Assembly (NCBI GenBank): GCA_036172245.1
Contig: JAYWIR010000056.1
Span: forward strand, 682,001 to 746,000
From: Raillietiella orientalis
Taxonomy: Eukaryota
Reading direction: 5' to 3'
DNA length: 64,000 nt
Made by a program: the position numbers and the translations under genes. Shown piece after piece: positions 9,755-58,400 of the stretch (position 1 is its first letter; every line of letters starts with the position of its first letter). Below the pieces are notes generated by a model. The model was not told the DNA's origin. It saw only the letters and a list, made by a program, of their open reading frames with translations, and did not search any database.

Positions 9755-12700
9755 ATGGCCGCCTCCTGCCTGCTTGCGACGCTCCTGGCGCTAGCGACCC
9801 GGGTGGGCGCCAGCGTGGAGACGGTGCTCATTGTGCAGGCGGATCGGGCGCCCAGGTTCCTGGAGGCGCTCCCCCCGCGCAACCGGACGGGGGGGGCGGA
9901 GGTGTTCGTCCTGCCGGTGCCCGCCACGGGCAACCCGCTGGCGGACTTGCTGCGGCGGGTCTGCGAAGGCCTCCACGGGAGGCGCCCCGGCGCTATTCTT
10001 GTCCTGGGCGACGTGCCGCTGACCACGGTCGCCGCCATGGTGGGTCACTCCGTCGGCGCCCCAGTGGTGGGCAGGAAGTCCTCGGGCATGGCCGACGACG
10101 CCTTCCAGGTAAGAGTGCGCGCGCGTTGCTCGCGGACCTTCGACCCTGATCTCCTCCACGCCGAGCATACAAGGACTGCTCGCTCTGGAGGGGGCTCGTG
10201 CGAGGTGCTGGGAAGGGAAAGGGAGCCTCCCCATGCTCTTCCCTCCCCCCGCTCTCGGGGGAAAGGAAAATGACCCTGGCCTCCGAGATGCGCCCTCAAC
10301 CCCGGCCTTCCTGAGCACGAGAGAAGGAGCGAAGGGTTCCTTTCCTCGTGCAGGAGAGAGGTCACCTGAGATCATTCCCGCGCTAACGCCCGCAGGTAGG
10401 GTTTCTCCTTTCCGAAGGTAACGTCACCCAGACTCGCATTCGGTGTCCCGCCGCTTTGGGAGAGAGACGGGGGGCAATAGAGGCTGCGGAGAGAGCTCCT
10501 CTCTCTTCTCAGGGGTCGCGCTAGTGCGGATCTGGGCGGCGGCAGATCTTTTCCACGGCCCCTTGACCCATCCAGCTGCTTTTGCGCTGCAGACGAGGTA
10601 CGGGCGAGGTCTGCTCCCCGCTCGGAGGCGTCGGCAGGACATGACCTTCCCCGCCCCCTCTTCCTCTTCCCTACCAGGCATTCAACCCGCTCTACGTCGA
10701 GGCGAACCCCACGATCCGCCACTTCCCGGCAGCGCTGCTGCGCTTCATGGAGGACAACCGCTGGCGCCAAGTGACCGCCATCAGCGACGATTCTCACGTG
10801 GCTAGGATGCTCCTGTGGCAGCTGCAGTCCTCCGCGGAGGTGGCATCCCGGTTTAACTCCATCGTGATCCCCGGACATGCCGACGCGGCCCGCATCGGTG
10901 CCCTCGTCAGCAGGGCACGTCAGTTCCCCACTCGCTTCCTGCTGGTCAACTGCGACAGGTCGATGGCCTCCAGGGTCCTCCAGAGAGCGGCCTCCCTGGA
11001 CATGCTGGACGGCAGCTGGCTGTGGCTGCTCGTGGACGGGCACCTCCGTGGTGGACGCGACGAAGCGTGGACTCTGCCCGCAGGCGTGATCAGGGTGTCC
11101 TTCAAGGACGGCGGCTGGAACAGGAGGACCGTCTGGAATGCCTCTAGGGAGCTCCTCCTCGATTCGGTGCGGCAGACCCTGTCGGTGCCCAGCGCTGCCC
11201 ACAGCCAGCCAAGGAAGATCGACTGTTGGGAAGACGGACAGCAGCCCCCGGGAGACCCCGACCCCTTCTCCATCTCACTGCACAGGTATCGTCAGCCACA
11301 GCGTCTTCATCCTCCTCCTCTTCTTTGCTTGCTTCCCTTCCTCCTCCTTCACCTCTATCTCTTTGTCCCCTTTCCTCTTCCTTCCTTCCTTTGTTTCTTC
11401 CCATACTCGTCGTCCTTCTCCCTGCCTTCCGTTCTCCGGAAAGGGGTCCCCCCATAGGGATGGTCCCGGCGGTGTCCTTCCCAGAACTTGGACTTCTTTG
11501 CGTTCTCCAAGGGCCGCCACCCAAGAAGCCGGCCATCTGCCTCACTTACGCGCCTCGTGGGCGTTCTCTACCTCCGCTTGTTTTTTGACCAGCAAGAGAT
11601 CCCGGAGGGGAGAGGAGGGAAGAGGGGGATCAGGATGAGCACCCGTCAAGACGTGCTCCGCCTCCCCTCTTCTAGTTTCCGCTGCTCGAGGAAAGCTGCT
11701 GTCCCATCGAGCCTGCCAGACGAGCGCGTCTGGGGTCCCTGAAAGCTACCTTGGGGATGCTGCAGGCTCTTCGTCCGGATGACGCTCGTGCGGCTGTCTT
11801 ATCTTGCGGCGCGCGCGCCTCGGGAAGGAGCGTCCGTTCGTTCCCCGTGTTCACGTGTTTTCCCCATCTCTTCGTCTGTCTCTGCCTTCCCAGTCCTTCT
11901 CTCCCTCCTGGGTGACCCCCTCGATCCTGCTGCGCAAATAGGGTCGTCTGCGGGCGCGATTGGCATCGGGGTCGACCTTAGGTCATGGACTCGCTGGCGT
12001 AGCAGGGCGAGACTCCCGGCTCTTCTGTTTTTCGCGCAGCCCCGTCTGCATAGGAGCGACGGTGCAGATCCCCGTCCCCCTTCCCTCGCTCCTGCGGGAC
12101 ACAGGGAGCGCACGGGGGAAAAGAACTCGGGGCAAGTAGAGAGAGCCCATGAGACTGCTCGACGAAGAAGGAGGACGAGACGACTGTCTCCGGTCCAGGA
12201 GACGCCTCTCGGATGGAGGGAAGGCTGAGAGAGGGGGGACTCGTCCATCCCTTACGATTCCCGTCGATCTCATCAGGATCCGCTGCTCTCTTGTCCCGGA
12301 AGAGATGCGATCACAGAGAGAAGGGAATAGGAAGGGAGCAAGAAGAAGGAAGAGAAGGACAAAAAGACGCTCGCGGGAGTCGCCAAAAAGGTCGAGGTGA
12401 ACGCAAATGTGGGGCATCTGTTCTGCCGGATGCTCCCAGGAGCGGAAAGATCATGGAGAGGATCCGAATCGATCTGGGAGCGAAATATGATGATGCGGAA
12501 GAGATACAAGTTCCGAGGAACAAACGACATCAATGAGTTGCGAAATGGTACTTTCGAGAGCACGGAACGCAATAACTGCGCGGAGATAAGCGGAACAAAA
12601 GATTGTACATCCTGGAGTAACACGCGAGAGTCATCACAATATGGCGTTGGCTTCTCGGAGTCTCCAACGCTCATAAATTAGGAAGACGGCAACAATTTAT

Positions 12701-15700
12701 GAGATCCTGGACATGCGGGGAAATCTGCTGGGAAAAACCCTCGAAATTGAAGCAATAACGAACACGATTCCCGGTCCATAGGAGTGACGGACGAGACTAT
12801 CGGATCGAGTAGTCCTTCGCCTCAACCGCAAGCGCAGCTGTAGCGCTTGATGTGCGGTGAGGTTTCCACTGATGAAAGATCCCGATGATCTAGAAAGGAA
12901 AGGATGCATTCTCAGTACATCAGGAACCCTCGTCAGAGAGGTTGCAGAAAGGGCAGGATGATGGGAGATCACCCAAAAGAGAAGACCCACGCCTTCAAGG
13001 AGTGTGCCCCCGGGAAGAGTGCGGGCGCTATATGAAATGACAGAGAACGAAATAAAGGGGATGATGTGCTTTTGAATTCAAAGCAAATGGAAGAAGATCC
13101 TCTCTCGTAAGTTCAGATGAGCGCACATCCGGAGCAGGGAGAGCAGCGAGTATTCCTTAAGACGCAAGTACCGATTTGAAACATCTTTCCTCGAAAAGGG
13201 AAACGTGATCCGAAGGGCAAGTACTCTTTGAGAATGACGAGCATTGTTTAGAAAGTAGAAAGCATTGTTTAGAAAGTAGAAAGCATTGTTTAGGAAGTAG
13301 AAAGCATTGTTTAGAAAGCACCTGCGGCGCATCTTTCACTGAAAGAAATCGTTGCAGTTGTTTAAAGGGAATTTTTTTTGGTGCAACTGAAACTTCAGAG
13401 TGAAAGTGCAGTGAACAGAGGAGAGACCATTCGAATAGATCGGAAGCAGCGCAATCGGCTCGTTTGAAGGCAGAGGTCACGGCCCAGGAAATCGAAGAGC
13501 TTCTTCCTGATGCTTTCAGGTATTTCAGACGGTTTCCCAGTGGAGCCACGTGAAAATCTTGCTAGCTGACATCCGCTCCCAGGAATGTCAAATCAGGTGA
13601 AGTGCGGATAGGTCGAACATCCGATCCGTTTGCCTCCCGCCTTCAACGGCAGAAGATGGAGGCAGGAAAAAGGTCAGAATGAGAGATCTGAGATCCTCCG
13701 AGGGCCACCGAAGAGGCCGGTCGTCTCCTCGCTCCCGCACACCTCGTTAGCGCGCTCCGCCTCCGCTTCATTTTTGGTCGGGAAGAGAAGAAAAGGGAAG
13801 GAAGGGGGGAAGGAGGAGGGAAGGTTGCGTGAACTGCCAAGACACGCGCCCTGCTTCCTTTCTTGACTTGTCCTTTTCTTGCGAAGAGATGCTGATGGAC
13901 GCCTCATGGCTACAGTTGCATCCTGTCCCATAGTTGTAGGCCCTTGCTGCCCTCAGTTCACCTTGCCGCGCGCGCCCAGGCGCGGCATCGCTAGGGAACG
14001 AGGACGTCGGTGTTCCGTCTCCCGAGCTGGAGCCAGAGTTCCCGTTTCCCCGACGCGGCTCCCAGCTTCCTTCCACATCAATTGAAAGATGATGAGGTTC
14101 GTTTCTTCCCGGAGCGCTCCCCATTTTCCAGCAGCTTCTTTTATCGATGCGCGAGGTGCCATTTATTTCCTCCCGGAGGGAGTCCCCAAGATGCTTGGCG
14201 AGTTCCTCTTCTGGAGCATCATTACTAGGAGCGCTCCGCGGCAACCTCGACGTAGCGTCCGATCCTCCGCTTGGAGCCCCGCCAAGCATGACTGTCGCGG
14301 ATAAATCATGCGACGCGTCTCCGAGAAACCCATCTGATAAATAGGTTCTAGGAAATTTGGAATAGGTCCAGGAACGGTCTTCATCCTTTTCGTCTCTATC
14401 GCTCCCAGGTCCGAGGCGGCCCGTGGCCATGGCCTCCGAGGTCGGCTCCGGCCAGCGGCCGTAAATCAGTCGCGGAAAAGGGCGTCCGGAGCCCCCCCCC
14501 CCCGGAGTACGCGGTGGCAGACCCCCTCCTCTCTCCCTTTCTCCGACTCTGACCCCGAGAGTGGCTGCTTCCGGACAATATGGTTCTCCAGCCCCTTCTC
14601 TCGCCCTCCCGTTCCGTCTGACCCGCCGGCTTTGCAGGGAGCTGAGGAGCCGCTACCAGGCCTCCGAGTGGACGGGTACCGGAGGCCGCTCCGGCCACGG
14701 AGCGGTCCGGAGGCCCCGCTTCCTCCTGGAGAACCTCTCCCGCAACAGGACAGGGAAGTTTTGGCGCCCTGTGGGCTACCTGAGCCCGGGCGGCTCCAAG
14801 CTGGACGCGATCATGTGGCCGGGCGAGTCCATCGCGGGGCCGAAGGTCAATCAGCCGAGCGAGTACCGGGTGGTCACTTGCGCAGCGCCGCCCTTCCTGA
14901 TGGTCTCCCAGGAGACGCCTGGGAAGAAGTGCGTCGTGGGTGTGCCGTGCTTGAACCCGCGGCCCGGCGGCCGCGCGCCCCTGATGGAGCTCATCTCGCG
15001 CCTGCGAAACGGCGGCCTCGAGCACGCCGCGGGCAATGTGACCTGCTGCTACGGGTACGTCGTGGACCTCCTGGAGCGCGTGGCCTCCGAACTGGACTTC
15101 CGGTACGTCCTCTACCTTGTTTCGGACGGTTACTTCGGCTCCCTACGGGAGGGCCGCTGGAACGGAGTCGTGCGTGACCTCGTGGAGGGCACTGCCCACC
15201 TGAGCTTTGCCTCGCTCAGCGTGACCTCCCTGCGCTCCGAGTTCGTGGACTTCTCCTCCCCGTTCCACTTCTCGGGGGTCTCCTTCCTGGCCTCCTCCCG
15301 CTACCGGGAGGCCCCCCTGCTGGCCTTCCTCGGACCCTTCAGCCCCAGTCTCTGGATCACCATCTTCGTCAGCCTCAACCTGGTGGCCCTAGTGGCGGCC
15401 GTGTACGAGTGGTCCAGTCCTTTTGGCCTGAACCCGTGGGGCCGCCAGAGAACCAGGAACTTCAGCATCGGCTCGGCTCTGTGGGTCATGTGGGGACTCC
15501 TCTTCAGCCACCTGGTGGCCTTCAAGGCTCCCAAGTCCTGGCCCAACAAGGTTCTCATCAACCTGTGGGGCGCCTTCAGTGTCTTCTTCCTCGCCTCCTA
15601 CACGGCCAACATCGCCGCGCTCTTCGCCGGTCTGCTGTTCCAGACCACCGTCAGGGATTTCCATGATAAGACGGTGAGTCCGACGCGCTAACTGGCCCCG

Positions 15701-18700
15701 AGGGGCCATCCCTTCCGACGGGAAGCCTCCAGTTGATCCTCCGCTGCCCCACTAGGGGCAGACCCAGCAGCAGCACCCCGCCCGAGAGGCGCGTGCCAGT
15801 CGAGTCCCGTTCCGGAAGCAGTCTGGCCCTCGAACTCCCCTCCTGAGGTCTTCCCTCTCAGAGGGTCAGTACGAGGACCGAGACACCCCAGCAGGCACCT
15901 CCTGAAGGACGGTCCGCATCGCGCGGATCGATCCACGGGGAAGTCTCCCTGCGCTCCGGAAGGGGGTCGCCCAGCGGCGAGAGAGGAGCTGCGCGTGGAT
16001 CGCATGATGAACTCAGGGACAACCACCTAGCAGGCCGCGCCGGGATTGTGCCCGTTGAGGGAAGAACGTCGGCACGGTTCGTTCCGACGTCGCGACCGCG
16101 TCCCTCTCCCCTCCGCCGTGACTGACCACGGCTGACCAGGGCTTTTCCGCATGCCCAAGAAAGGAGGACAGGTGCTGCGCGAGTCGTGACCGTCCTCCTT
16201 CTTTGGGACGTCATCCGGGGTCGGCGAGGACTCCTCCTAAGAAGGGTGTCCTCTCCCCTCCCTTTCCGCCATGGGCCTCCTGCAGCCCCGTACTCTCCCT
16301 CAGGAGAAGATTCGTCACCGCCCACGTGCGCGCTTCGGACCTCCCCGAGAGTCCTCTGCTCCACAACCGTGGAAGTCGACAGCACAGTCGCGACTTCCGG
16401 TCGCACACGCCTTCGAGTGCTCGCGCGCCAGACAGCGGGGGGCGATAGTCTCCGGCAGCGGCGGGGGAAAGGGGAGGGGATATGAATTTACACTTTGATC
16501 TTAGCCAAAAGGCCGAGAAGCGATATGAATTTACAGTCTTCCTATTCCCGTCCCCTCCCTCACTTCCTCTTCTTGGGGGACTGCCAGTCGACACGAATGC
16601 ACGTCTTTGCGGGGGTTAAGTGAAGATGCGGTGTCGCCGAGGAACACGACCTTCTCTGGATCCTCCACGGCCATCCGGGGACGCGCACTGAGCGAAGATA
16701 GGCTGCGAGTTCCACGGGCAGCCAGGGAATCCTCGCACGATCATATGCCCGTCCCACTCGTGCCCTCTGGAGTGCTCGCGCATCCTCATGCTCTTTTGCG
16801 AAGAGCACCCATAACCCCGTAAAGGAGGGGGGAAGGGTGTTGCTGGAGGGGTTGCGACGCGCGCAGAGACCTCGGCTCCTGACGAGGTCGGCGCAAAACG
16901 CTGTCCTCTCCCTTCTGGAAAGCGTCGAAAGGGAGGTGGTTTCGGGCACCTTTTCTTCCATCCAGGCGCACAGCTCTTTCAGGAACGCGTGGTTTCAAAA
17001 ACCACAGAGGCTCGACAAAGCGGCGAAGGAGGACGCGCTTGTCGGGCAGAGGGAGCCGGACGGCCTTACTCAGCGGACGCCGAGACGAAGCGTTCCACGG
17101 CAGCTTACGCAAAGCTCTCAGTCGATAAAGCGGGTTCCCTCCTCCAGGATTTGTACGCGCCCCAAATTCTCTCCTCGGTCCCTCCGATTTCCGTCTTCCT
17201 TCCAACAGTTCCCGGATTCAGTTCCGAGCCAGATCGCGCAGATACCACTTGATCGCGCGGCAGATCAAGTGCATCTGTGGCATGATGAGATGCTTTCAAG
17301 TAGGCACGTCTCCTTGGTGGAGGCGACCTGCTTTCAGGCTCGCAACTGCATTCGGATGGCGTTCCCGCATTGTGGAAAACAAACAAACAAACAAACCTGA
17401 CATTCACAAACTCTTTTACTCCTCTTTCGATTTCAAAGGGCAGGAGCACGATGGCTGCTTCACCCCCCCCTCTCGTAACGAGGGAACAATGTTCGCTCCC
17501 CCTTGAAATGCTTCTTGGAATACATCGAATTGCGGTAACAATACTTGGATAACAACTCTTTTTCCTGAAATGGGTAACAATGCTTTTTCCTGAAATGGGT
17601 AACAATGCTTTTTCCTGAAATGGGTAACAATGCTTTTTCCTGAAATGGATAACAATGCTTCCGATCCGAATGTGATTCCGGCTCCGTTTGGCAACGCTTG
17701 AAATCCTCTCTGATGCTTCAGAGAGCTTTCATGGGGCAAGAGATTTGTCAGATTCTCTGGATCAATAATTTTAGACAATGTAGGATACAGGGATTTGGCT
17801 GATGTCCAGCATAGCTTAATGCTTCCCCGTCGGGGAGAAGAAGCCAGCACCCGTGCTTGCAGCCCAGTCGCTAGTGGTGGTGCTTCCTCTATCCGATTCA
17901 AGTGGCATCCACCTTTCCCTTTCCACTTTTTGCAATTTTCCCGCGTCTTTCCTCGTCTGCTTCTCAATGCTGCTGCGGCACGGGATAGTGAATTTGCAAG
18001 AATCCCCCGATTCCTTCATCGATTTTCGGTTGTGAGCCTTGGTTCCAGGATTTAGGGAAGCATCCAAGATGCGATGCGGCTTCGGGAAATTTACAAGAGA
18101 CTCTCGAATGTGCCAGCGCCTTGGAAGGAAGGCGTTACGAGCTCACAAATCTTCTGCTCTGTACTTGGGAAACCCTCAGGGAGACACAGGGACTCTTTGT
18201 TTTTTTTTTGTTTTTTTTTTTTAAAAAAAAAAAAAGGCAAAATAGCTGGAAAAAATTCAGACGTTCAGGAGTGAACTCGCGGCCTGCAATCCGACCAGAA
18301 CCTCTCGTTCATCTTTAATGGTTTTACAATGCTAAACACATTCGAGTCCACGCGCAGCTCAGAGCGACAAAACCTGCAATCCCGTGCAAGACGTTCCTTC
18401 TCCCACATTTGTAATCAGGGAAAAAGAAGGCAACATGGAAATTTTAAACGTGGTGCCTGTTCTGGATGTTCGCTTGTCTGTTCCTCCCTGCATCGGTAAT
18501 CAGGAAAGAACAGCTCTCTTGAGAGGACGCTCGAAAATTTTTCCATCCCGCGGATTCGCTCCTGTCCCGTGGCGACCGAGAGGATTCTGCGTAGCCGCTT
18601 CCGTAAAGATCCGACCCTGGAGGACGCCACGCTACACACAGGGAAGGCACCGGCTTGCAATTTCCGTCCTCCTCAGAGCGGGTACGCCGGCTGGGATCCA

Positions 18701-21700
18701 CATGCTCCCAAGGGTGAGATTCAGGTTAATTCTGAATTCATTGACTGGAGGCCAGCCAACCGGGGAATCGAGCAGCGATGGGGCATCCTCGTCCTCAGAG
18801 AAGCGACGCCTTGGAGACGAAGGAACCTTCTCTGATCCTGACTCCCCCCCCCTTCCTGATCACCTGATCAAATTCGAAGATCGAACAACCGGGGTGCAGC
18901 GATGAGAACTCGCTTCGTGGTCACGGATGGGGAGGGATTCATCCATTCTGACCCATCGGTCAGGATGAAGTTCTTCCCTGTCTTTCGGATCCACGGTAGC
19001 TGGGGCGTGCTCCTTTCCATCTCGAGACCAACTCTCAAGTGCGGGCTGCCGCCGAGGGCCGGCACGTCCCTCTCCCTCCCACGCGTCATCGGTCCGCTGC
19101 GGCCCTGCGGAAGTCACCGCTGATGTTGAGTCCCACAGTTTCTCCAGAGTGGCTCGAGGGATTTCCCTATGAAAAGCTGCGAGCCTCCTCTCTTCTGCGC
19201 TCTCTCCCAGAGGACACTCTGCACGGCTCCGGGGAAGAGGGCACCTGGGTGACGGCGGTGGAGTCCTTCCAGGGATGCTCGTATAACTGCGGAGGGGCAG
19301 GAAGGAGCTTCTTCGGCGGACCTCCCCTCCCCCCATCTCGTCTCCAAGGTAGCGCGATACCGCACCGAGATGCCGGGGTACGCGGGAGGCTGGGGGGCAC
19401 AGAGTTCACGATATGCTTACCCACGAATGCTACGGGCCACAGGGGCCACCCTCAGCATCCCTAGAGCTGCTGTTCGGCACTTCGCCAGCCACTCCTGCGG
19501 CGAGCGGATGCCGCCCGAATCCGCCGCGAGGGGCTGCTGGAGTCTCGGTCGGCGGGATGACCGAACGCCCGGTGGTCTGCGACTCGCGCGGAAGCCCCGC
19601 AGCTCCCGGCCGAGGAAGCGGCTCGTTCAGTCGGGGAGTTGCCAAGTCGATCATTGGCAGACAGAGGTCTCCGGGAAGCCCTCGAGGATCGCCTCGAGCA
19701 CTCACGCGCCGCAGAGCGACCGAACGCGCTCAGCAAGCGGAGCGGCGGGTCACGGGGGGCTCGGCCTCCGCGGATGAGACATGCGGCCCCAGAAGCGAAA
19801 GACGTGGTCGCTTCCGAACCTAGGGAGCTCGAGAGGGTGCGGGAGCCCGTGACCCTGATAAGTCCTTTCGTCTTCCTCAGAGTAGGTCGCCGGTGAAGCG
19901 AACGGGACCCTCCGCTTTGACCTTGGCTCCCTCCAGTGACTTCCCGGTGACTTCCTGTTTTGGCCGGGAAATCTCTCCGGTGACACTTGGGTCGTGAGTC
20001 CGCCCTGCGGTGCTTCGTTCCCTGCGAGGATCCCGAGACGAGTGCCCTTGTTCTCGCAAGGCAGTCTCTCATTTCATGAGGACGCTCATGAACGCGGTAG
20101 GCCCGGAGAGGTTACGAGTCACGAGACTGGAAGACGTGGCCCCGAAAGCTCTCCCACCTTACCTGGAGATGTGCAAGAAGCCCCGCTTCCTAGAATCACC
20201 CGCTCCTCTCCTGCTTGCCTTCTCTCTCCACGCTCCCGGGGGCAGCTGACCATCCCAGAACGACCTCTCTCTGCACGGAGCTTCCTGCTTGCCCTCGGGT
20301 GCGACAGAGTGTACCCGTAAACCGTGCTTCTCCCCCGCGGCGTCCCTTCGTTGCATCCCCCGCCTCCGGGTGCCGAGCACTGACGCTTCTGATGGTTTCG
20401 GAGGGGGAACAAAAGAAAACGGGGAAGAGTTTTCCTAGGATGCTGTTGCCGCCTAGGAAAACCCTTGGGGAGGAAGGAGGAGGGGAAGAACGGCGACCTC
20501 AACTCGCACCACTGGCGTCTCTTGCAGCTGCTGACGTACCGCGTGGGCACCGTGAGGAGCAGCGCCCCTGAGTACTACATCCACAAAGCCAACAGCGTCC
20601 TGGGTCAGCACATGAGGTCATATCTAACCGAGAACATGGAGGAGGCGGTGAACAAAATCCGGTGAGGGTCAGCAATGGCGCCTGCCTCCGCGGAGAGGGG
20701 CTATAGGGCATTTCCTTCCCCCCCCACTGCGCGAAGCCCGGAGCCAGTAAGGGAGGAAGAACCTCGGAAAAGACCGCCGTCTTCCCCTTTCCTCGACCTA
20801 GGATCCTCGGGAGACGGGGATGGATGCTGCGGAAGCGCTCCAGGGCGGACGGGAGCACGCCTGAGGCGAAAGAAGGCGCGCGCGGAGGGTCGCAGCACCC
20901 TTAAGGCACCCGCCCCCGTGATTCCAGATCGCCCTCGACTTGTTGCCTAGCGGCCACCGAGGAAAAGCGGCTGCTGGATGGCTCCAAGAGGAGGGAGACT
21001 CTGTTCTTTTTCCCGCGAGCTCTTGGGGACCCAAGGACCGGAGGAGAGCATGCCTCCCTAATAAGGAAAGGCAGGTCGCTGTCCCCCGGTTTTCCTTGTC
21101 TTCCATGACCTGGGCCCCTACAAGTCATGGCCCAGGTCGTGGGAGCGGTCGTGGTCGAAGATCCTGAAGACGGGGAAGAAGGGTGGCGGATGGCTGCCCC
21201 CTTCTTCCCTCTTTCATCCCTCTTGAGCTGGAGAGCGCAGGTCACTGGGCTGTGGGAAAAGTTGGGAATAGAGGGTTATGCGGGAACCACGGAGTTCCCT
21301 CAGAGGCTGCCACCGCCTCTGCAGGCCTTCCGGCAAACCACTAACCAGGGGCTCTTCTCCTCCCCGTATGCCGCCGCGCCTCCTCCGCCCATGCAGGAGT
21401 AGACAGCTCGACCTAGTCGCAGGAGACACACCCATCCTGGACTACTACCGGGGCACAGACCTCGGATGCACCCTACGCGCCATCGCGGACGAAAGCATTT
21501 CCGACGACGCCTACGCTGTCGGCTTTCACAGAGGAGTGCCTGAGGCCTTCAAGGTGAGCAGCGCCCAGGGGCGTCGGCGCGCCAAGAATTGACACCTAGC
21601 GCCTTCCTTTTCTTCCTCTTTCTTCCTCCCTCGCTTCTTCCTCCCCTTACTCCTTCTCTTCGTCCGCCACTCTTCCTCCGCCCATCTTCCTCCCTTCCTC

Positions 21701-24683
21701 TTGCTCCTTTCTTGCGCCTTACGGCCTTCCCTCCAGAGATGTTAACGGCCGTCTTGTCATCAACTAGGAGTCCGTCTCCGAAGTCATTGAAAGACACGCT
21801 GAAAGGGGATATTTTGATCATCTCCAGGAAAAATGGTTCGGCGCGCTCCCCTGCTTCCGTCTGGACTCGGGGATGTTCGAACCGAGGTCCCTCGGGGTCG
21901 GCGCGCTGGCCGGAGTGTTCCTGATGCTGGGAGTCGGCATCACCGTCAGCTGCATCATATTGCTGCTGGAGCACCTCTTCTACAAGCACATCCTGCCGTC
22001 CTTGCGAAGGAAGCCCCGGGGAGCGTTCTGGAGGTCACAGCATCTCATGCTCTTCAGTCAGGTGTGCCTCGCGCCCTGAGAAGGCGAAAGAGGAGGGGGA
22101 CGGAGACCCTGCATCCCTTCTCCATCGCCGTTCCCGGCCCGGAGTTCGCCCCGCCGTCGGCCTGCCACCTACCACGCAGATGCTACGACCTTTCCCGCCA
22201 GTGTCTACCCTCGCCTACCGTAGAGCGGGGCACCCCTCCCACGGTAGCGACCTCAGAGCTCTCCCCCTTCCGACTTCGGGGGGTTCGCACGGAGGCCGGA
22301 TGGCTGGATCCAGACCTTCCCTTTGGGCATGGGTCCCTCCGAGAAGTGGGGTCTCCGCTCCAAAGCTGCCACTGAGCTTTCCTGGAGGCGGTAACCTCTC
22401 ATTGGCTGTAGCCTATGAGCCTCCTGCTCCGGCTGTCGTCCGGAGAAACCCCTTCCTCCGAGTCCTGGAAGCCTCAACTGAAGACCTCCATGACCCGGAG
22501 GAGAGAGCAAGAGGTCGCGAGCGGCATCCGCCCCGAGCCGTCGGAGGTGCACGTGGGCGTTCTTCAGTCCCAGCCAGCGCGTCCCGAGATTCCCGTCTTC
22601 TTTCGTCTCCTCCCTAACCCCCCATCCTGCTCTCTCTTCCTCGTGTTGATCGTTTGTTGCGCTCTTCCTTTGTAGTTCGGACAACGCGCAAAAGAGGACG
22701 CTGTTCGGAGGGAGAACCTCTGTGTTCAGCCCCTCCCCGCCGAGCTCAAGAGTTCGCGCGCGCACTCTGGCTCTGCCTCTCGCTCGGAGGGATCCCCCAG
22801 GGACCTACTGAACTTCCCCGATCGTCCGGGAAGATCCAGGGTTCCGGGAAAAGCTCTTCTGCCGGTTCCCCGGTTCGCGACCGATGACCGCGCGCCCATC
22901 AGGGAGCTCTGCCCCACCGTCCTCACCATGAACAGTGCCCCCGCGTTAGGGAACCAGGCTTGCGGAGGGGAAACACGTCGTCTCCCTCCTCTTCCGGATG
23001 GAGGGATGCTGCCGCTGCTCAGCGTACGTGTCCCTGAGCCCGCGCTGCGAGCCGCCGCCAGTCCCGCACCTCTGAAGCCGCGTTCCTTGCAGAAGCTGTA
23101 CCAGTTCATCAACGTGGTGGAGCTCGTGTCCCCGCACCACTCGGCGAAGGAGCTCGCCAACTATCTGAAGACGGGCCACATCACCGGCCTCTTCCAGAAA
23201 AGCTTCAAGAAGGTGGGTGCTGGACCCTCTCCGGACAAGGGGCGCTCACCATCGTCTCTCCCGTTACGGTCCAGAAGGAGGACGAGAGGTCTAGGAGGAG
23301 GAAGAGTAAGGCCCTGTTCCTGGATGCCATCAAGGAAGCCCGGAAGTGAGTACCTTCTGCCCGCTCCAGAACCCCGCCCCCTGTACTTCGGGGAAGCCGA
23401 CGTGGTTCCCAAGGCAAAGTGGAACAACAGCTCACCGAGCGCTTCCTTACCATCTCCTCCTCCTCCTCGTTTTCCGCTTCTCCCAGCAGTTGATGGGGGG
23501 AGACGAAGACGACGAGGAGCGACTAAACGGAAGACGTTCGGCATTCCACTCTGCCGAGGGAAGGTGACGTCCACCTCGGGTGGCGGTGCGACTTCCGTGA
23601 CGTCATGACGGGCTTTACGGAGGAGCGTGCGATTTGATAGCTGAGGCAAAGCTCACAGGCTCGCAACTCGCCTTCCAGGGGCCTTGGGGAAGCTTCTCCT
23701 CCCCCTCGTTCCTTCCCTCCCCTCGTTTCATAGTCCCCTGCCCCCTCCCTCCTTCCCGCGGACGCTCGCCGTTCCAAGACGATGCTGCGCGCGCGTGTGG
23801 CGGACCTACACTTTGATCTTAGCCAAAAGGTCGAGAAGCGATGGCAGACCCGAGAACTCGATTTGACCTGTACCCTTCACGCTCTTGCAGATTGCAGATA
23901 CGGAGGAAGTCCCCGCCCGCCTCCATGGCGGCGGCGCCCAGGGGAGGCTCTGCCCGTGCGGGACCGTCGCCGACGCCCGCTGCCTCTTCAGAGAGCAACG
24001 CCTGTGGCTGCGGCGCCGGGCAGGCGGACCCCCGTCGGTGCGCGGAGGTGCGCGACTGCTTCAGGGTGACCCCCTCCAGGAAGCTCTGTTTCGTCCCGGA
24101 GGCGGCGCCCTCAGGGAAGGGGAGGGACCAGGGCATTGCTCCCTCCCCTTTCCTCCTCCCCCTCCCCTCTTCGTCCACTTCCCCGGAGCACCGTCCCACT
24201 GCCAACCCCCAGCACGGAATCTCGAGCCGCCGGAGACAAGGGCGCCAGCAGCGACGCCAGGAGGCAGCTCCCTCCAGGAGCGTGTCGCTTGAGCTGTCAA
24301 TGGGAGGGGCCGCGCGAAGCCCCCTCCGCGGAGGTGGAGTCTGGGGGAGCTGTCCCACACTTCTCTCCTCTTTGGTGGCGGCATCGGTGCTCGCCAGGGA
24401 CGACGATTCTCCGGAAGGCGCCGGCAGATGGAGCAGCCTAGGGCTGCGGGACCGCTCCGTACGGCACGGAGGGACGAACCCCTCCCAGGCGTTCGGAGCT
24501 GACCCGGAGGACCACTTGTTCCCGGTGTCGACCTTTGACCTCGAGCGCGACCGCGCTAGGTTCGACGCGCTCACCAAGGAGCAGATCTTTTTGCTGTGGA
24601 GATCACAAGAGCGGCACTTCCGACGGCTGCTGGGCACGCGGCTGCGAGGGGGTCAGGGAGCGCCTCCCGGCAGCATAGCGTGA
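9755..24683 (+). CDS. GRIN3: Ionotropic glutamate receptor, NMDA GluN3-like subunit, about 1189 aa. Exons 9755-10108, 10678-11285, 14638-15673, 20528-20661, 21397-21553, 21768-22061, 23093-23212, 23490(or 23487)-23563, 23891-24683
   Basis: Signal peptide MAASCLLATLLALA; S1 CCYGYVVDLL, WNGVVRDL, SVTSLRSEFVDFS; YEWSSPFGLNPWGRQR; M2 WGLLFSH; M3 SYTANIAA; S2 GDTPILDYY, DAYAVG, LQEKWF; M4 LAGVFLMLGVG. All introns GT-AG with consistent phases (3570 nt total). The last two exons are the least certain. Confidence 0.9.
12400..13600 (-). mobile_element. Probable decayed LINE ORF2 fragment in receptor intron 2
   Basis: RLKYL (KYLG-like) followed by LQRFL..K.P.V....L.K, similar to the post-RT region; interrupted by a 21-nt tandem repeat. 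Confidence 0.35.
13240..13318. repeat. 21-nt minisatellite, about 3.7 copies
   Basis: Unit GCATTGTTTAGAAAGTAGAAA. Confidence 0.95.
16489..16524 (-). pseudogene. RNU2: 3'-truncated U2 snRNA copy (nt 1-36) with target-site duplication
   Basis: Minus strand reads ATCGCTTCTCGGCCTTTTGGCTAAGATCAAAGTGTA, the U2 5' end; flanked by direct repeat GATATGAATTTACA (16479-16492 and 16522-16535, overlapping the insert ends). Confidence 0.93.
16800..18750 (-). mobile_element. Probable decayed LINE ORF2 fragments in receptor intron 3
   Basis: Endonuclease-end-like segment (SSRVG..; GTGGCGACCGAG shared with the 52.8 kb element) followed by broken RT-like frames. Confidence 0.35.
17547..17660. repeat. 25-nt minisatellite, about 4.5 copies
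   Basis: Unit GGTAACAATGCTTTTTCCTGAAATG. Confidence 0.95.
23806..23842 (-). pseudogene. RNU2: 3'-truncated U2 snRNA copy (nt 1-37, one substitution) with probable target-site duplication
   Basis: Minus strand reads ATCGCTTCTCGACCTTTTGGCTAAGATCAAAGTGTAG; flanks TGGCGGACC (23798-23806) and TGGCAGACC (23842-23850). Confidence 0.9.
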
Positions 24684-26159: not shown

Positions 26160-26912
26160 CCAGTTTTTTGCTTTTTTCCTTTTTCTGATACTCGAGGAGT
26201 GCTGAAAAACCATCGCCTCCTAGCCGGGCTCACGAAGCTCTCGAACCACCGTCCACGCCGCCCGAGGGTGCGTGAGCCTCCTCCAGTTATCGGGGGAAAC
26301 CCCGGAGGGACCAATCCATGAATTCAGGAAGGTCCTGGAGGAAAGAGTCCCTTTCTCTCATTCTTGGGAGGGAACCCTCGCCGTGGTTGTCTTCGAAGGG
26401 AACCCAGAAAGGATCTGCTCCTGTAATTTCCATTCCGGAGGGACCTCCCTCAAGGGAACCTCTCCTTGTTACTTCTCTGAAGAGAACCCCAAAGGGAGCT
26501 TCCTGGTTTCTCCGAAGTGCGCTTCTGACACTCTGGAGAGGCAACTCCCCGCGGGGGAGTATCAATCAGCTTCATGATACGCAATGATAGGTCACCCCCA
26601 AGATGGGACGACTCCATTTTCACAACCGGAGGGAAACCCTGAAGAACTCCTTGATTCCCTGAAGGACTCCGAGGGTCAACTTCCAATCCCGGCCAGTCAA
26701 TGGAGTCATCCGGTTTCGAGTTGCTTCCACCAGTGCCACCGCACCCGAAGCCTACAGGACAATCAGCGTCATCTTGCGGGAGGGGTTCGAAACCCGCGAC
26801 GCACCCCCCGCTCCCGGCATTGACCCTTCCTAGGGCGGGATTCGAACCCGCGACGCTCGGTCCGTGTTGTGGCCACGTGGCGCGGAGATCGCAGCCACTC
26901 AGCCACCAGCGC
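26160..26912 (-). mobile_element. Long tRNA-derived SINE, copy 1
   Basis: Minus-strand head with A-box TGGCTGAGTGG (26905-26895) and B-box GGTTCGAATCC (about 26848-26838); A-rich tail at the left end; body collinear with the copies at 37.3-38.1 kb and 51.4-52.1 kb. Ends approximate. Confidence 0.8.
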
Positions 26913-29041
26913 GGGCCCACACGAGTGCGAAGGTCAAAAGTCGGAGGAGGAAGGAAGGTGAAAGGTCGAGAAGCGAAAGAAACGGACAGCGGATGCGCAG
27001 GGTCGTTGATTCTTGCTGAGCCCCTGCCTCACCCTTCACGGTACCCTGCACCCCGTAACGAGACCGAAAAAAAAGAATGATCTCGTGACCTCCAAAGAAT
27101 TTGCACTTGAGACCCCGGCACCCGTCTGGTGATGACAGGAACTCGTTGCCATGGAATCAGTGCTTTTTCTTTGTAGTTGTTTGGTGCTTCTAAACTTTTT
27201 TGAGAGGAATCGACTCTCTCCATCAGGATAAAAAGATAAACTGGGACACGAAGCGGGAACAAGGACGCTGGGGTATTACTCGCATCTCCCCGTTCACTCC
27301 GGTGCATCCAGGAGAAGAAAGCCTTCTGAGAAACGAGCGTTTTATGAGCCAGGAAATGCTGCAGCCCCAAAGAGAAAGTCAAGTCCAAGACGTAAAAGCA
27401 CCGCCCCTCCGTGGAACTCGAAACATTAAAGACAAGGACGTTAGCTCAGGAAGCTGGATAGGCGGATAAACTCTCGGGAGGATCGAAGCTACAACGGCAC
27501 GGTCCGGTCGTGCAGAAAGCGAACTCTCGAGGAAACGCAGAGCGAGGTAGCTTCTTCCAGAGATCCGTCTCCCCAAACAAAAGCCTCACATCCCTCCCTC
27601 GCGATGTCCTCATTGCTCCTAGACATTCGGCAGTTATCCCTCCATCGGCAAGTCATGTTTTAAAGAGCTCCTCGAAGAAGGTTACGACTTCATTACCCAG
27701 TCTTGCTTTCCATTTGAGGAATGCGGATGCTGCCTAAATTTCTCATTTTAAGGACTACCTATTTCCGAAAAGGGGATTCTCAAGAGAGATAATTTCTAGT
27801 GCCTTCTTCTTGATGGAAAATCATCAAAAGACTTCATGTGTTCTGAGGATAATGTGATGAGGCTCTCAGGTGAATGCTCTTTGAATGCTTTCTAGGGTGT
27901 GGATGAGATCGCTCGTAGGAGAAGCCAACCCTCTGCCACGCAAAACCCGATTTTCCATGCAGCCACTTTTCGCAAAGAGCCCACATTCGGAAAACACCAG
28001 TTCCATAATAAATAAGTGGACGCGAACAAACAAAAGTTCTTGTAAACAGCACCTCCTTCTCGAAAAAGGGAAGAGCTATAAAACCAATCTGTTCTATCCC
28101 TATTAAGGATTCTTGCATATTTTCTTTTTGTTCTGCTTCTCCTTTGTTTTTGTGTTTAGTAAGTACGTGGGCCACCCCAGTCCTTATGGCGAGTCATTAA
28201 TTTTTCAGTCTCAGTTTTACCTATGCACTGGATCTCATGATCCCGAAATCCTGAATTTGCCGAGAATATAGAGGCAACTAAGAATAAAAGTTCACGAAAG
28301 CTTATTCTGGTTTGGAATCGTACTCGCTTCAGCTGTACATATACAAAACAATTGTCCACAACATAAATAAATAAATAAGAATATTCTTAAAAGCTTCTTG
28401 CACGAGAAATGAAAGGTGTGTTCTACGTGAATACCTTTGGATCTGCAACTATTTTCTATTTTGGCCGTTTGATCAGCATTTTGTGAAAACGGATGTCGCA
28501 AATGCTCTAAAGACTCTTAATGCCTTTCAGAAATAAATCGCCTTTCAGCAAACTTTTCTGAATAAGTATATGATCGGCAGATATAAATTACAGGTGTGTT
28601 TGTCAGGAGAAGACGTTTTTTATACAGCTGATTTTAACAAATATAGACCCGTTCATAGAAATCGCGTTTGCTGTTCCAACCACATGAGCATTTCTTTAGT
28701 TTCAAAAACCAAATTTATAAGACCGAAAGAGATCAGTAAACTTTTGCCTTGGGACACCTTTATCACGAAAATATGCACTTTTCCGCTCATGATCTGTAAC
28801 ATTTACTATTGGATCCCCTCTATGAAAACAGAAAGCTTCTTTATTTTCTGTGAACAATATACAGTTGATTGTTCTAAGAAGCCACTGTAGATTCAGATAT
28901 TATTTCACTATTGTTTTGTTCTTAGAAATGCAGGTTAATAGATAGTGAATTTTTCCCACACCGAATCTTGGGGGTTTTCAAGAGGATCCTTGTGTTTCTC
29001 GGATAGACTCATCCCCGCGTTCTCCGTATGCTTTGGGACTG

Positions 29042-50543: not shown

Positions 50544-50609
50544 ATCCAATGCCGCAGTTCGGATTTAAATCTGAACGTTCAGATTTAAATCCGAACTGCA
50601 GCATTGGAT
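50544..50609. repeat. 66-bp spacerless palindrome (33-bp arms, one mismatch)
   Basis: Centre GAAC|GTTC at 50576/50577; mismatch at 50553/50600. Confidence 0.95.
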
Positions 50610-55460: not shown

Positions 55461-58400
55461 TCACTTGCCAGGCTGCAAGAGCCGCCGCGGGGAAGGCGGC
55501 GGCGGGGCCGGAAGTCGCCTCTTCTCGAGCAGCTCGATGGCCTCCGATGGTGGGTTCCCCGCTGCACCGCCGGTCCTCTTCCTCCTGACCCTCCTGGCGG
55601 TCCCAGGAGGGGAAGGGCGTGGTCTCGCATTCCATAGCTGCTCCTCCCCGCGGCCGAAGACCACGAACACAATGTTCCCGACCAGCAGCACGACCGAGGC
55701 TATCAGGAAGGTCATCTTCCAGCGGGCGACGGTATGCTGGGGGCGGAGGAGATGGAGGGGGAAGGGCAGCTGGAGGAGATGCTTCGATGGCTCACCTGCT
55801 CCTGTGTCAGTGCCGACGCGGTCGCGGGAACCAGCAGCTCCGGCAGGCATCCCGCGGCGCTGGACAGCCCGATGATGACCCCTGGAAACAGGCCCTTCGT
55901 CGGCGGCCCTCCCCTCGCGGGAGGAGGGAGGAGGCACTGGGCAAGGAGTGCAGAGAGGAACCCCTGCTGCTGATACCGGCGTAGTTGGGGGCCAGGTCCA
56001 AGACGTTGGTCCAGAATCCGGAGTACTGGGCGCCGCTGAAGAGGAGGCAGAAGGAGAAGCAGACGACTGCAGCGGCGGAGTTGCAGCCCGAGAAGGCGAC
56101 GCCAACCAGGAAGAGGGCGGGCAGGAGCATGCCTGAGGGACCGCTCAGGAGGATGGCCGTGCGGAGAGCACCCGAGCAAGCCCCACCCCTCCATTCTGTT
56201 CCCATGCCTCACTTATGGTGGTTGCCATCTTGCGCACCGCCGTGGTGGATATGAGCTTCCGATGCCTGAGGCAGTCGGCCAAGGCACTGAAACTCACGCT
56301 GAAGACCCAAAGGGCAAGGTAGGGGCCGGCAGTAGCGGCGGCGTTCTTCCAGGACAAGGGGGAGAAAGGGTAGTGACCTTGTCCCGTTCTCTTCCCCCTT
56401 CCCTCTCCACTTCACGCTACCTTCTTGAGGTGCACCCCGACCACGTTGCGCAGGTAGATGTTGGTCTCGTTGAAAACGACCCTCCAGCCCCAGCTGCTGC
56501 ACAGGTGGCACACGATGACGGCCCAGACAGGGGAGGAGCACAAGATATCTCGCCATGGGATGAGATTCTGCTGCATCTGTTGGGAAACCGGAGGGTAGGA
56601 GGAGGAGGAACGATCATGCGAGCGCCGAGCAAGAGGAAGAAACGCAAAGGAAGCGAGTAGCAAGGGAGCCGGGAAGAGGAGGAGCAAGAAGGGCGGAGGA
56701 GAGAGGGAAGGAAGAGAGGGAAAAGGAGAAAAGGAGGAGAAAGGGAGGAGGAAGAAGGGAGGAAAGAGAAAAGAAGGAAGTGGAAGATGAAAGGGGGAGG
56801 AGAAAAAGGGGAAGCGGAAGAGGAAGGAGTGCCGGGTGCTCACCCTTTGGGACAGCTTCTTCCCGACTCCTGTCCGATTCCTCAGGATGTAGTCCCTCTC
56901 GGTGGACGATATCCACGGGTGTACGATGGGGTCGTCGTGAACGAGGATGAGGAAGAGGAGCAGCCACGCGCAGCTAATGAGGCCGGTGGCGTAGAAGATC
57001 CACTCCCAGCCGAGCATGGCACCGATGGACGAGGGCAGCGGCTTCACGAGGGCCACACCGAGAGGAGTGCCTGCTTGTAGGGAGGGTCCCGATCCGGCTC
57101 GCACTTCCTATCTCACCCACGCGATCGGGGCACTGACCTGCCAGGACCAGAGCGGTCATCCTAGTCCTCTCGTGGACCGGCGCCCACTCTGCGATCAGGG
57201 TGTGCATGGAGGGCAGCAGAACTCCCTGCGGGACCCTTCGTCTCATCCCGGGGGAGGGGCGTCAAGTGGCGGGCGGCCCGAGCCTCGCCGAGAGGTGCTC
57301 ACCTGCGCCGTTCCCTCGATGAACCTCGCTGGGATGAGGGCTAGGTAGCTGGTGCGGGCCATGACGGGGGCCAGGAGGGTGAACAGGATTGCCACGGCCA
57401 TTCCCATGCTGAAGACGATCTTCCCGCCGTACCTGTGGGAGAGGACGCCCCCGGGGATGAGGGAGAAGGCGTAGCCAAAGCTGGAAGAGGCCAGCACGTA
57501 GTCCTGGATGCTCTCCTTCCAGACGAACTCGCCGTCCCGTCTCTAGGCGGTCCTCTTGCGGGGGAGGAGGAGGGCAGGACTCAGGGATCACCAACCGTCT
57601 CCGTCTGGTTCTTCAGCACGTAGCACTCCGAGGGGGTCCAGGAGGCGTAGCGATCCCTGCCTGCTGCAAGGGCCGTGTGGTTGATCATCCCCACAATGCC
57701 AATCTCCAGATTGATGCGAAGGAGGTAGGTCGTGATGTAGCCCAGGAGGCCCAGGAAGGCGAAGATCCAGCGGCACTGAGGTCTCATCCACCCTGGAAGA
57801 GGGGATGCGCTCGATGCTTGGAGAAGACAGGCTGGAACGGGGCAAGAAAGTGGGCACACGGCAAGAGGAAAGAAGGGTGCCGTGAGAAAGGAACAAGGAA
57901 GGGGAGGGGGAGAGAAAGGGAAAAGGAGAAGAAAAAAGGAAGTGAGGGGGAATAAAAAAGAAAAAGGAGAAGAGGGGGAGGAAGGGGAGAAGAGGAGAAT
58001 AGAAAAAGAAAAAGAGAAGGAGGGGAGTGGGAAGAGAGGGAAAGAGGAAGAAGAGGAAGAAGAGAAAGACGAGCAAGAAAGAGGGAAGAGGAAGGCAGGA
58101 AGAGGAAGAAGAGAAACACGAGCAAGAAAGAGGGAAGAGGAAAAAGAGACAAGGAGGAAGAGAGTAGGATTAGGAGGAGGGGGAGGATCATGACGAAGAA
58201 CGAAGAGAATCGACCAATAAGGAGAGAAGAGGAGTGGAGGAAGAGGAAGGAAGGCGATAGGAGGAGGAAGGAAGGAGGACGAGGAGAAGAGGAGGAGGTG
58301 AAAGGGGAAGGGGGGAGGAAGAGAATTTCGATCCTTGGAAACTTGTGGGCGGTAGTGGAAAGGGAAATGAAACAAAGCTCTTTGCGTTCTCAGCAGTTCT

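Follow-up and report, generated by a model that had tools for sequence, protein, structure and literature searches.

Two short 5' fragments of U2 snRNA in introns of an NR3-type NMDA-receptor gene are probably truncated, tail-less retropseudogenes

The closest described relatives of the elements reported here are the heavily 3'-truncated retropseudogenes called Group III by Doucet, Droc, Siol, Audoux and Gilbert (2015, PMC4476161), which correspond to the old Class IV of Denison and Weiner; they are flanked by target-site duplications, are truncated in single-stranded segments of the RNA, show complementarity at the 3' junction, and are attributed in that paper to the L1 ORF2p endonuclease with its 5'-TTTT/A-like site. 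The same internal-priming model is given by Noll, Raabe, Churakov, Brosius and Schmitz (2015, PMC5322556), who describe 2-18 nt of complementarity between target and RNA at the 3' junction and whose supplement contains 666 human U2 cases; the coordinates of the human and cow tailless U2 copies span 33-44 nt in all 16 of the supplement rows examined. As these two papers describe it, the class is confined to therian mammals and the anole lizard, with sparse cases in maize, and in those lineages it is linked to LINE-1; the Noll screen is described as covering vertebrates and three plants only. No paper on such retropseudogenes in arthropods was found in a search at the level of titles and abstract openings. 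A second related system is the SINEU family, which Kojima (2015, PMC4494074) found in crocodilians only. Its dispersed copies have a short piece of the U2 5' end at their head (32 bp in SINEU-3), followed by a body and a poly(A) tail, whereas at the loci described below the U2 piece stands alone inside its duplications.

We describe two U2 fragments, copy 1 and copy 2, that lie within 7.3 kb of each other, and in the same orientation, in one NR3-type NMDA-receptor (glutamate-receptor) gene. The window (the whole 64-kb stretch of DNA that was analysed) contains them and their flanking direct repeats as follows:

23806 to 23842, minus strand: copy 1, U2 snRNA nt 1-37 with G12 changed to A and nothing of U2 past nt 37 (cmscan RF00004, pattern match)
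23842 to 23850, minus strand: 5'-side direct repeat of copy 1, GGTCTGCCA, whose last base doubles as U2 nt 1
23798 to 23806, minus strand: 3'-side direct repeat of copy 1, GGTCCGCCA, whose first base doubles as U2 nt 37
16489 to 16524, minus strand: copy 2, U2 snRNA nt 1-36, with the exact sequence that opens full-length environmental U2 genes (BLAST, cmscan, exact pattern match)
16522 to 16535, minus strand: 5'-side direct repeat of copy 2, TGTAAATTCATATC, whose last 3 bases double as U2 nt 1-3
16479 to 16492, minus strand: 3'-side direct repeat of copy 2, TGTAAATTCATATC, whose first 4 bases (TGTA) double as U2 nt 33-36
15671 to 20527, plus strand: 4.9-kb intron that hosts copy 2 (exon map from tblastn and sequence)

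Cmscan aligned the minus strand from 23842 to 23806 with positions 1-36 of the Rfam U2 model (RF00004), the alignment containing a single non-consensus base, an A at nt 12, and an additional A, at a score of 28.1 bits (E 0.0018 in a 1.1-kb search and 0.1 in a search of the whole window); this is far under the 46-bit gathering score because the first 37 nt alone are present. Copy 2 was found as a BLAST self-match of the copy 1 region (97% over 36 nt) and scores 36.1 bits (E 0.0012), also below the gathering score. A search of the window at gathering threshold gave no match. A 36-nt pattern allowing up to 3 mismatches found exactly these two sites in the window and no match in 100 dinucleotide shuffles (0/100), which rules out a chance resemblance to U2. 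The preliminary description of this DNA had stated that the receptor pre-mRNA carries a 37-nt near-perfect complement of U2 nt 1-37, and the cmscan score, the pattern search and the shuffles bear this out: copy 1 is on the minus strand and the pre-mRNA is therefore the complement. A candidate third copy at 26961-26976 is a 16-nt match only, in a CT-rich stretch (BLAST E 0.04), and is doubtful. No other snRNA, 5S or tRNA fragment was found in the window by cmscan at E of 1 or less, and ARAGORN found no tRNA there.

Is the extra A a defect of the copies or a feature of the RNA from which they were made? The exact 36-mer of copy 2 is present in at least 120 metagenome loci, and 107 of the 120 loci listed continue with one identical 12-mer as full-length U2 genes; because of this the "inserted A" is, on the present comparison, native to this U2 type and not a defect. 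The Bos taurus U2 consensus in the Noll supplement (PMC5322556) is without it. Against the U2 type that carries the extra A, copy 1 is identical at 36 of 37 positions, the G12 to A change being the sole difference, and the U2 part of copy 2 is unblemished. Four of the 120 listed environmental loci (L040, L096, L110 and L118) break 4 nt or less past the 36-mer, but a junction repeat equal to that of copy 1 was found in none of them (best score 5; L040 has no upstream flank), and apparent inverted U2 pieces in L001, L011, L039 and L072 were not confirmed by the repeat search; as judged here, the truncated environmental loci lend no support to a wider distribution.

Both copies start at U2 nt 1 and stop at nt 36/37, in the single-stranded branch-recognition stretch; positions 27-46 are unpaired in the Rfam consensus structure, and both copy ends fall inside that interval. 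The direct repeats of copy 2 match at 14 of 14 positions and abut both junctions, and their score is reached by 37 of 20,000 random positions (0.19%). Those of copy 1 also abut both junctions and match at 8 of 9 positions, the single mismatch being CpG versus TpG; this repeat is short and imperfect, and 271 of 20,000 random 37-nt positions in the window (1.4%) reach its score. Neither copy has an A-tail, the U2-sense strand continuing as GTCCGCCACACG after copy 1 and as AATTCATATCCC after copy 2. At the 3' junction copy 1 has 1 nt common to target and U2, and copy 2 has the 4-nt TGTA shared with U2 in addition to ATC at its 5' junction. The target site of copy 1 reads ..CG/GGTCCGCCA and is GC-rich, and that of copy 2 reads ..AC/TGTAAATTC.. 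(also written ..AC/TGTAAATTCATATC). When 23300-24100 was compared with the window by word-9 BLAST, the two loci were linked by one 36-nt HSP only and no similarity outside the U2 part was found; having nothing in common except that part, the two copies are, as judged from these alignments, independent. Copy 1, which carries a base change in its U2 part and the CpG/TpG difference between its repeats, looks older than copy 2.

The host gene appears to be of arthropod type. Its large exon matches arthropod NMDA-3A-like proteins at 53-60% identity (356-406 bits) and gives only 230 bits against solved GluN3A chains. A vertebrate GRIN3B identity was rejected, since the arthropod matches are higher than those to the solved chains and the exon after M4 is also close to arthropod proteins. 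Its 3' portion is read as follows:

23093 to 23212, plus strand: receptor exon after M4 (KLYQFINVVELVSP...), matching 6 of 7 arthropod NMDA-3A-like proteins at 66-76% identity across 41 aa (tblastn)
23275 to 23345, plus strand: short penultimate coding exon (weak tblastn match to P0121 residues 986-1010, 56% over 25 aa)
23346 to 23890, plus strand: predicted last coding intron, which hosts copy 1 (donor GAA/GTGAGT, acceptor CTCTTGCAG/A)
23862 to 23867, plus strand: branch-like TTTGAC, whose A, at 23866, precedes the AG by 24 nt (motif read from the sequence)
23891 to 24683, plus strand: open frame of 264 codons up to its stop, in phase with the donor and proposed as the last coding exon

The seventh arthropod protein, P0126, matches the exon after M4 at 49% over a longer 73-aa stretch (tblastn). 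The penultimate exon is flanked by AG and GTGAGT, and its tblastn match to P0121 backs the upstream side of the predicted last intron. On the downstream side the frame is backed by a C-terminal motif common to arthropod homologues: of 15 long homologues whose C-termini were compared, 14 have, close to that end, a match to residues about 270-320 of the spliced tail (best E 6e-4, database of 137 proteins). The acceptor at 23890 (AG at 23889-23890) is a prediction; it is the best in-phase candidate, with 78% pyrimidines at positions -20 to -3, and a second AG (23896-23897) lies 7 nt downstream of it, out of phase. The host of copy 1 is most probably the last coding intron of the receptor as predicted from these matches. 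Copy 1 ends at 23842, 48 nt before this acceptor, and the distances from the fragment to the AG and to the TTTGAC adenine given in the preliminary description were recovered. Copy 2 is about 820 nt from its upstream exon and about 4 kb from its downstream exon, far from any splice site. Because the twin sits so far from the nearest exon, lying close to a branch site is not characteristic of these elements.

How do these features compare with the known systems? Like the tailless U2 retropseudogenes of therian mammals and the anole lizard, both copies start at nt 1, have no A-tail, are flanked by target-site duplications and end after stem-loop I (33-44 nt in the published cases). They likewise resemble Group III in being heavily 3'-truncated between target-site duplications, with an end in a single-stranded segment. 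The bases common to target and RNA at the 3' junction, 4 nt in copy 2 but only 1 nt in copy 1 against the 2-18 nt of Noll et al., would be a further point in common with both systems. They differ from the cases of Noll et al. in that the host gene looks arthropod-like, the source U2 carries the extra A, the sites are not TT/WAAAAWW and the density is far higher, and from Group III in that the L1-like 5'-TTTT/A site is absent from both copies; neither target site resembles any of the L1 sites (TT/AAAA, TT/WAAAAWW or 5'-TTTT/A). Such sites count against L1 having driven the insertions, but not against the mechanism of insertion itself. A genuine U2 gene (RF00004) is identical or nearly so to both copies over its first 36-37 nt, but the copies have nothing of it past nt 37: the branch-recognition sequence is cut short, and the Sm site and the 3' stem-loops are missing.

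We conclude that both fragments are very probably heavily 3'-truncated, tail-less U2 retropseudogenes (Group III) that entered the two introns in separate events and are most likely neutral. We infer the insertion from the anatomy of the copies only; the RNA intermediate, the enzyme and neutrality are inferences too. The preliminary description had kept a neutral insertion as the default explanation, and the direct repeats that abut the junctions, together with the deep-intronic twin, favour it. The insertions might have come about as follows: the reverse transcriptase of a non-LTR retrotransposon would act at a staggered DNA break, where a free 3' DNA end would anneal by a few bases to the single-stranded stretch of U2 RNA at about nt 33-37, after stem-loop I, which on nuclear U2 is the branch-recognition region. 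Reverse transcription would then run to the capped 5' end, giving a cDNA of 36-37 nt, and repair of the staggered break would duplicate 9-14 bp of target on either side. A Pfam search covering 103 of the window's 155 ORFs that reach 130 aa found no reverse-transcriptase domain; the other 52 are mostly overlapping ORFs in GC-rich parts. With two copies in 64 kb the local density far exceeds the published maximum of 338 per Gb (about 0.02 per 64 kb). Both results count against the retropseudogene explanation, as do the short, imperfect repeat of copy 1 and the non-L1-like sites.

The target sites, one of them GC-rich and both unlike the AT-rich L1 type, would also fit a capture in which short U2 cDNA, or U2 RNA serving as the template for repair, was patched into chance staggered double-strand breaks by microhomology end-joining, independently of an endonuclease and with no choice of site by a LINE enzyme. 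The microhomology at both junctions of copy 2 and the lack of a reverse-transcriptase ORF among those scanned fit such a capture, but two sites cannot define a target-site preference, clean duplications of 9 and 14 bp are the expected outcome of target-primed reverse transcription at staggered nicks, and the two copies break off at one and the same point of U2, like the internally primed class. We regard endonuclease-independent capture as unlikely.

A different question is whether copy 1, however it arrived, affects splicing. The antisense 37-mer could pair with the U2 5' end near the branch point and recruit, hold or block U2, and so adjust how the last intron is removed or which acceptor is chosen. 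RNAduplex, with the environmental U2 of locus L003 as a stand-in, predicts 37 contiguous pairs at -66.7 kcal/mol, compared with about -3 kcal/mol for the branch-like region. The G12 to A change places a pre-mRNA U opposite U2 G12 and keeps the pairing as G.U; both this and the place of copy 1, 24 nt from a plausible branch point, count against neutrality. The short distances to TTTGAC and to the best acceptor, and the out-of-phase second AG, would suit such a role. In extracts, U2 snRNP can be bound by antisense oligonucleotides directed at the 5' end of its RNA, and this too counts for co-option. Copy 1 nevertheless bears the hallmarks of an insertion, a twin with equal complementarity sits far inside another intron, remote from splice sites, and the predicted fold of the intron leaves the segment partly self-paired, with a mean unpaired probability of 0.41 (0.37 for the intron as a whole). 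The argument for co-option draws only on complementarity, a trait of every antisense intronic U2 retropseudogene, and no paper on a functional role for intronic antisense snRNA fragments was found in a search of titles and abstract openings. As it stands the decoy or recruiter idea is unsupported beyond that complementarity. We therefore hold control of last-intron splicing by the 37-mer to be very unlikely, and its specific form, in which a co-opted 37-bp duplex would act in cis on the last intron (for example by an inactive pairing with U2 that favours retention or the AG 7 nt downstream), to be highly improbable.

Finally, that the fragments are pieces of a lineage-specific repeat with a U2-derived head, and not direct copies of U2 RNA, is suggested by the existence of crocodilian SINEs with such heads (Kojima 2015, PMC4494074) and by two copies of like length in one window, but is extremely improbable and, on the sequences at hand, already contradicted, since the loci share nothing past 36 nt, the direct repeats bracket the U2 part itself, the poly(A) tail and common body present in all SINEU groups described in that paper are lacking, and non-LTR copies truncate at the 5' end and not the 3' end.

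As retropseudogenes the two fragments are ordinary genomic fossils of a well-described class, and nothing indicates splicing control. Their value is mostly negative: a striking complementarity to U2 beside a branch site can come from retroposition alone. A functional role would be of importance only if splicing were shown by experiment to be affected; if co-option were true, retroposed snRNA fragments would be a source of splicing regulators. Two side points may be of use to the study of retroposition: the class is seen here in an arthropod-type gene and at sites unlike those of LINE-1, and the two copies lie within 7.3 kb. If the high density proved to be genome-wide, this would speak for a "relaxed" route of reverse transcription beyond the lineages in which one is known.

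Read as its reverse complement, the plus strand at 23806-23842 gives U2 snRNA nt 1-37. On the minus strand this fragment (copy 1) aligns by cmscan to positions 1-36 of the Rfam U2 model with 28.1 bits, one inserted A and a single non-consensus base, at nt 12 (E = 0.0018 in a 1.1-kb search and 0.1 in a whole-window search). Across the 64-kb window no Rfam family attains its gathering score, which for copy 1 is expected, because only 37 nt of the 190-nt RNA are present. Chance resemblance to U2 is excluded, since a 36-nt pattern (up to three mismatches allowed) occurs twice in the window but in none of 100 shuffled sequences. The antisense U2 5' fragment that the preliminary description saw in a receptor intron is thus borne out, and its distances are correct (fragment end 23842, AG 23889-23890, A of TTTGAC 23866).

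What kind of gene hosts this fragment? The large exon (14720-15670) shares 53-60% identity with arthropod "NMDA 3A-like" subunits (e.g. millipede, scorpion, horseshoe crab and tick), contains Lig_chan-Glu_bd and Lig_chan domains, and scores up to 406 bits against the arthropod subunits versus 230 bits against solved vertebrate GluN3A chains. The gene therefore encodes an NR3-type receptor of arthropod-like type, and a vertebrate-type receptor is rejected. Exons were mapped by tblastn with seven full-length homologues, and the map, with a second U2 fragment (copy 2), is as follows:

10672-11289, plus strand, receptor exon (tblastn)
14654-15670, plus strand, large receptor exon (tblastn)
16489-16524 (flanks 16479-16535), minus strand, copy 2, in a 4.9-kb intron (BLAST, cmscan, perfect 14-nt repeat)
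20528-20668, plus strand, receptor exon (tblastn)
21383-21541, plus strand, receptor exon (tblastn)
21768-22061, plus strand, receptor exon (tblastn)
23093-23212, plus strand, receptor exon (tblastn; six of the seven homologues at 66-76% identity, the arthropod homologue P0126 at 49% along a longer stretch)
23275-23345, plus strand, receptor exon, weak support (tblastn)
23346-23890, plus strand, predicted last intron, 545 nt, hosts copy 1 (donor, downstream frame, best acceptor)

The exon at 23275-23345 ends in the donor GAA/GTGAGT, and a frame in phase with it is open from 23823 to a stop at 24683; in 14 of 15 long homologues a region close to the C-terminus aligns with the ~50 last residues of this frame (best E = 6e-4, 137-protein database), and of the in-phase AGs between 23826 and 24489 the acceptor at 23890 is preceded by the best pyrimidine tract (78%). 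Because of this frame, alignment and tract, the earlier designation of 23346-23890 as the last intron is the most plausible one, as predicted from exon map, frame and acceptor. Within this intron, at 23567-23612, a pair of palindromic TGACGTC(A)-type motifs ~30 nt apart and an ACTTCCG motif resemble promoter elements by sequence. The GC content of 2-kb bins ranges from 0.30 to 0.68 over the whole window; the receptor gene lies in the GC-rich part, and AT-rich blocks come after it, at 28-34 kb and 42-50 kb. Farther on are a near-perfect 66-nt palindrome (50544-50609), which scores like a microRNA-precursor hairpin on both strands but, at 35.6 bits, far under the gathering score of 89, and a minus-strand ORF (56415-57107) that encodes a Major Facilitator Superfamily domain (E = 1.2e-09) and belongs to a neighbouring transporter gene.

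When 23300-24100 was compared with the window by BLAST, the one further strong match was copy 2, in the same orientation (97% over 36 nt), and the two loci showed no similarity outside the U2 part. Copy 2 is unblemished U2 nt 1-36 (cmscan, 36.1 bits, E = 0.0012) and lies within the intron 15671-20527, with ~820 nt between it and the nearest exon. The two fragments share an antisense orientation relative to the gene, to which, with n = 2, we attach no meaning. A second copy only 7.3 kb away is unexpected, unless the genome is rich in such copies, because the highest published density is 338 per Gb, or ~0.02 per 64 kb, which two elements in 64 kb exceed by far. Downstream of the receptor gene, a CT-rich stretch contains at 26961-26976 (minus strand) an exact 16-nt match to copy 1 (U2 nt 3-18), including its A12 variant (BLAST E = 0.04); this match is doubtful, and could be a coincidence or the decayed remains of a third copy. 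Nearby, two B-box-like motifs lie in a tRNA-like stretch (26780-26920, minus strand) where neither ARAGORN nor cmscan calls a tRNA; the stretch looks like what remains of a tRNA-derived SINE.

On the U2-sense strand, copy 2 has a perfect 14-nt direct repeat, TGTAAATTCATATC, on both sides, whose last three bases are U2 nt 1-3 and first four U2 nt 33-36. Copy 1 is flanked by GGTCTGCCA and GGTCCGCCA, which match at 8 of 9 bases (the sole mismatch is CpG versus TpG) and each overlap U2 by a single base. In a control that placed a 37-nt element at 20,000 random window positions and counted only repeats adjoining both of its junctions, the score of copy 2 was reached at 37 positions and that of copy 1 at 271; a looser control without the positional requirement (103/1000 for copy 1) is uninformative there. 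The flanking sequence contains no A-run downstream of either copy.

At least 120 metagenome loci carry the exact 36-mer of copy 2. Among the 120 in the matches listed, it continues through one identical 12-mer into the rest of the U2 gene in 107, two more have this 12-mer with one base changed, and four are cut off by a contig end. In four of the 120 (L040, L096, L110 and L118) the 36-mer is broken off within 4 nt downstream, and convincing flanking duplications were not found at these loci. The "inserted A" is, judged from these genes, native to the source U2 and no defect. It is missing from the cow U2 consensus in the supplement of Noll et al. 2015 (PMC5322556), and the source RNA is therefore a non-vertebrate-type U2, from which copy 1 differs only by G12 to A.

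Both copies start 5'-complete and end at nt 36/37, in an Rfam-unpaired U2 stretch (positions 27-46); at the 3' junction, target and U2 RNA share four bases in copy 2 and one in copy 1. The Group III snRNA processed pseudogenes of Doucet et al. 2015 (PMC4476161) and the "tailless retropseudogenes" of Noll et al. are defined by 5' completeness, single-stranded truncation, no A-tail, duplications and 3'-junction sharing. Both copies have the first four of these features, and for the fifth Noll et al. report 2-18 shared nt. The supplement of the latter gives 666 human U2 cases, the biggest single source beside tRNAs, and U2 spans of 33-44 nt in all 16 coordinate rows among those listed, the same size as both copies. 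In the model of both papers, nicked target DNA anneals within the RNA at a single-stranded part, from which reverse transcription proceeds to the RNA 5' end. By analogy we infer insertion, RNA intermediate and enzyme for both copies: nicked target DNA would have annealed to such a part of U2 RNA, and reverse transcription would then have run to its 5' end. The target sites, ..AC/TGTAAATTC.. and ..CG/GGTCCGCCA, are unlike the L1 sites reported for such pseudogenes, and no reverse-transcriptase ORF was found in the 103 of 155 long ORFs of the window scanned. Break-repair capture of a U2 cDNA without LINE endonuclease is a possible variant of the mechanism.

Could copy 1 have been co-opted as a splicing element of the receptor's last intron? 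Its pre-mRNA segment is predicted to pair with U2 nt 1-37 without a break over all 37 positions (-66.7 kcal/mol, environmental U2 as stand-in), the changed base still pairing as G.U, and the branch-like region gives only ~-3 kcal/mol. Any intronic copy in antisense orientation would show such pairing; copy 2 reaches -67.0 kcal/mol, yet has no splice site nearby, and the copy 1 segment is partly self-paired in the predicted intron fold (unpaired probability 0.41 versus an intron mean of 0.37). A literature search listed no precedent for a splicing role of intronic antisense snRNA fragments, and the suggestion that this U2 complement recruits or decoys U2 is unsupported and seems very improbable. 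Against a SINEU-like repeat, of the kind described by Kojima 2015 (PMC4494074), the two loci have neither a body in common nor a poly(A) tail, which contradicts this reading.

The screen of Noll et al. covered vertebrates and three plants only, and the word "invertebrate" is absent from their text. Both copies are very probably an ordinary, already described kind of retropseudogene, in a host lineage where this kind is apparently uncatalogued.
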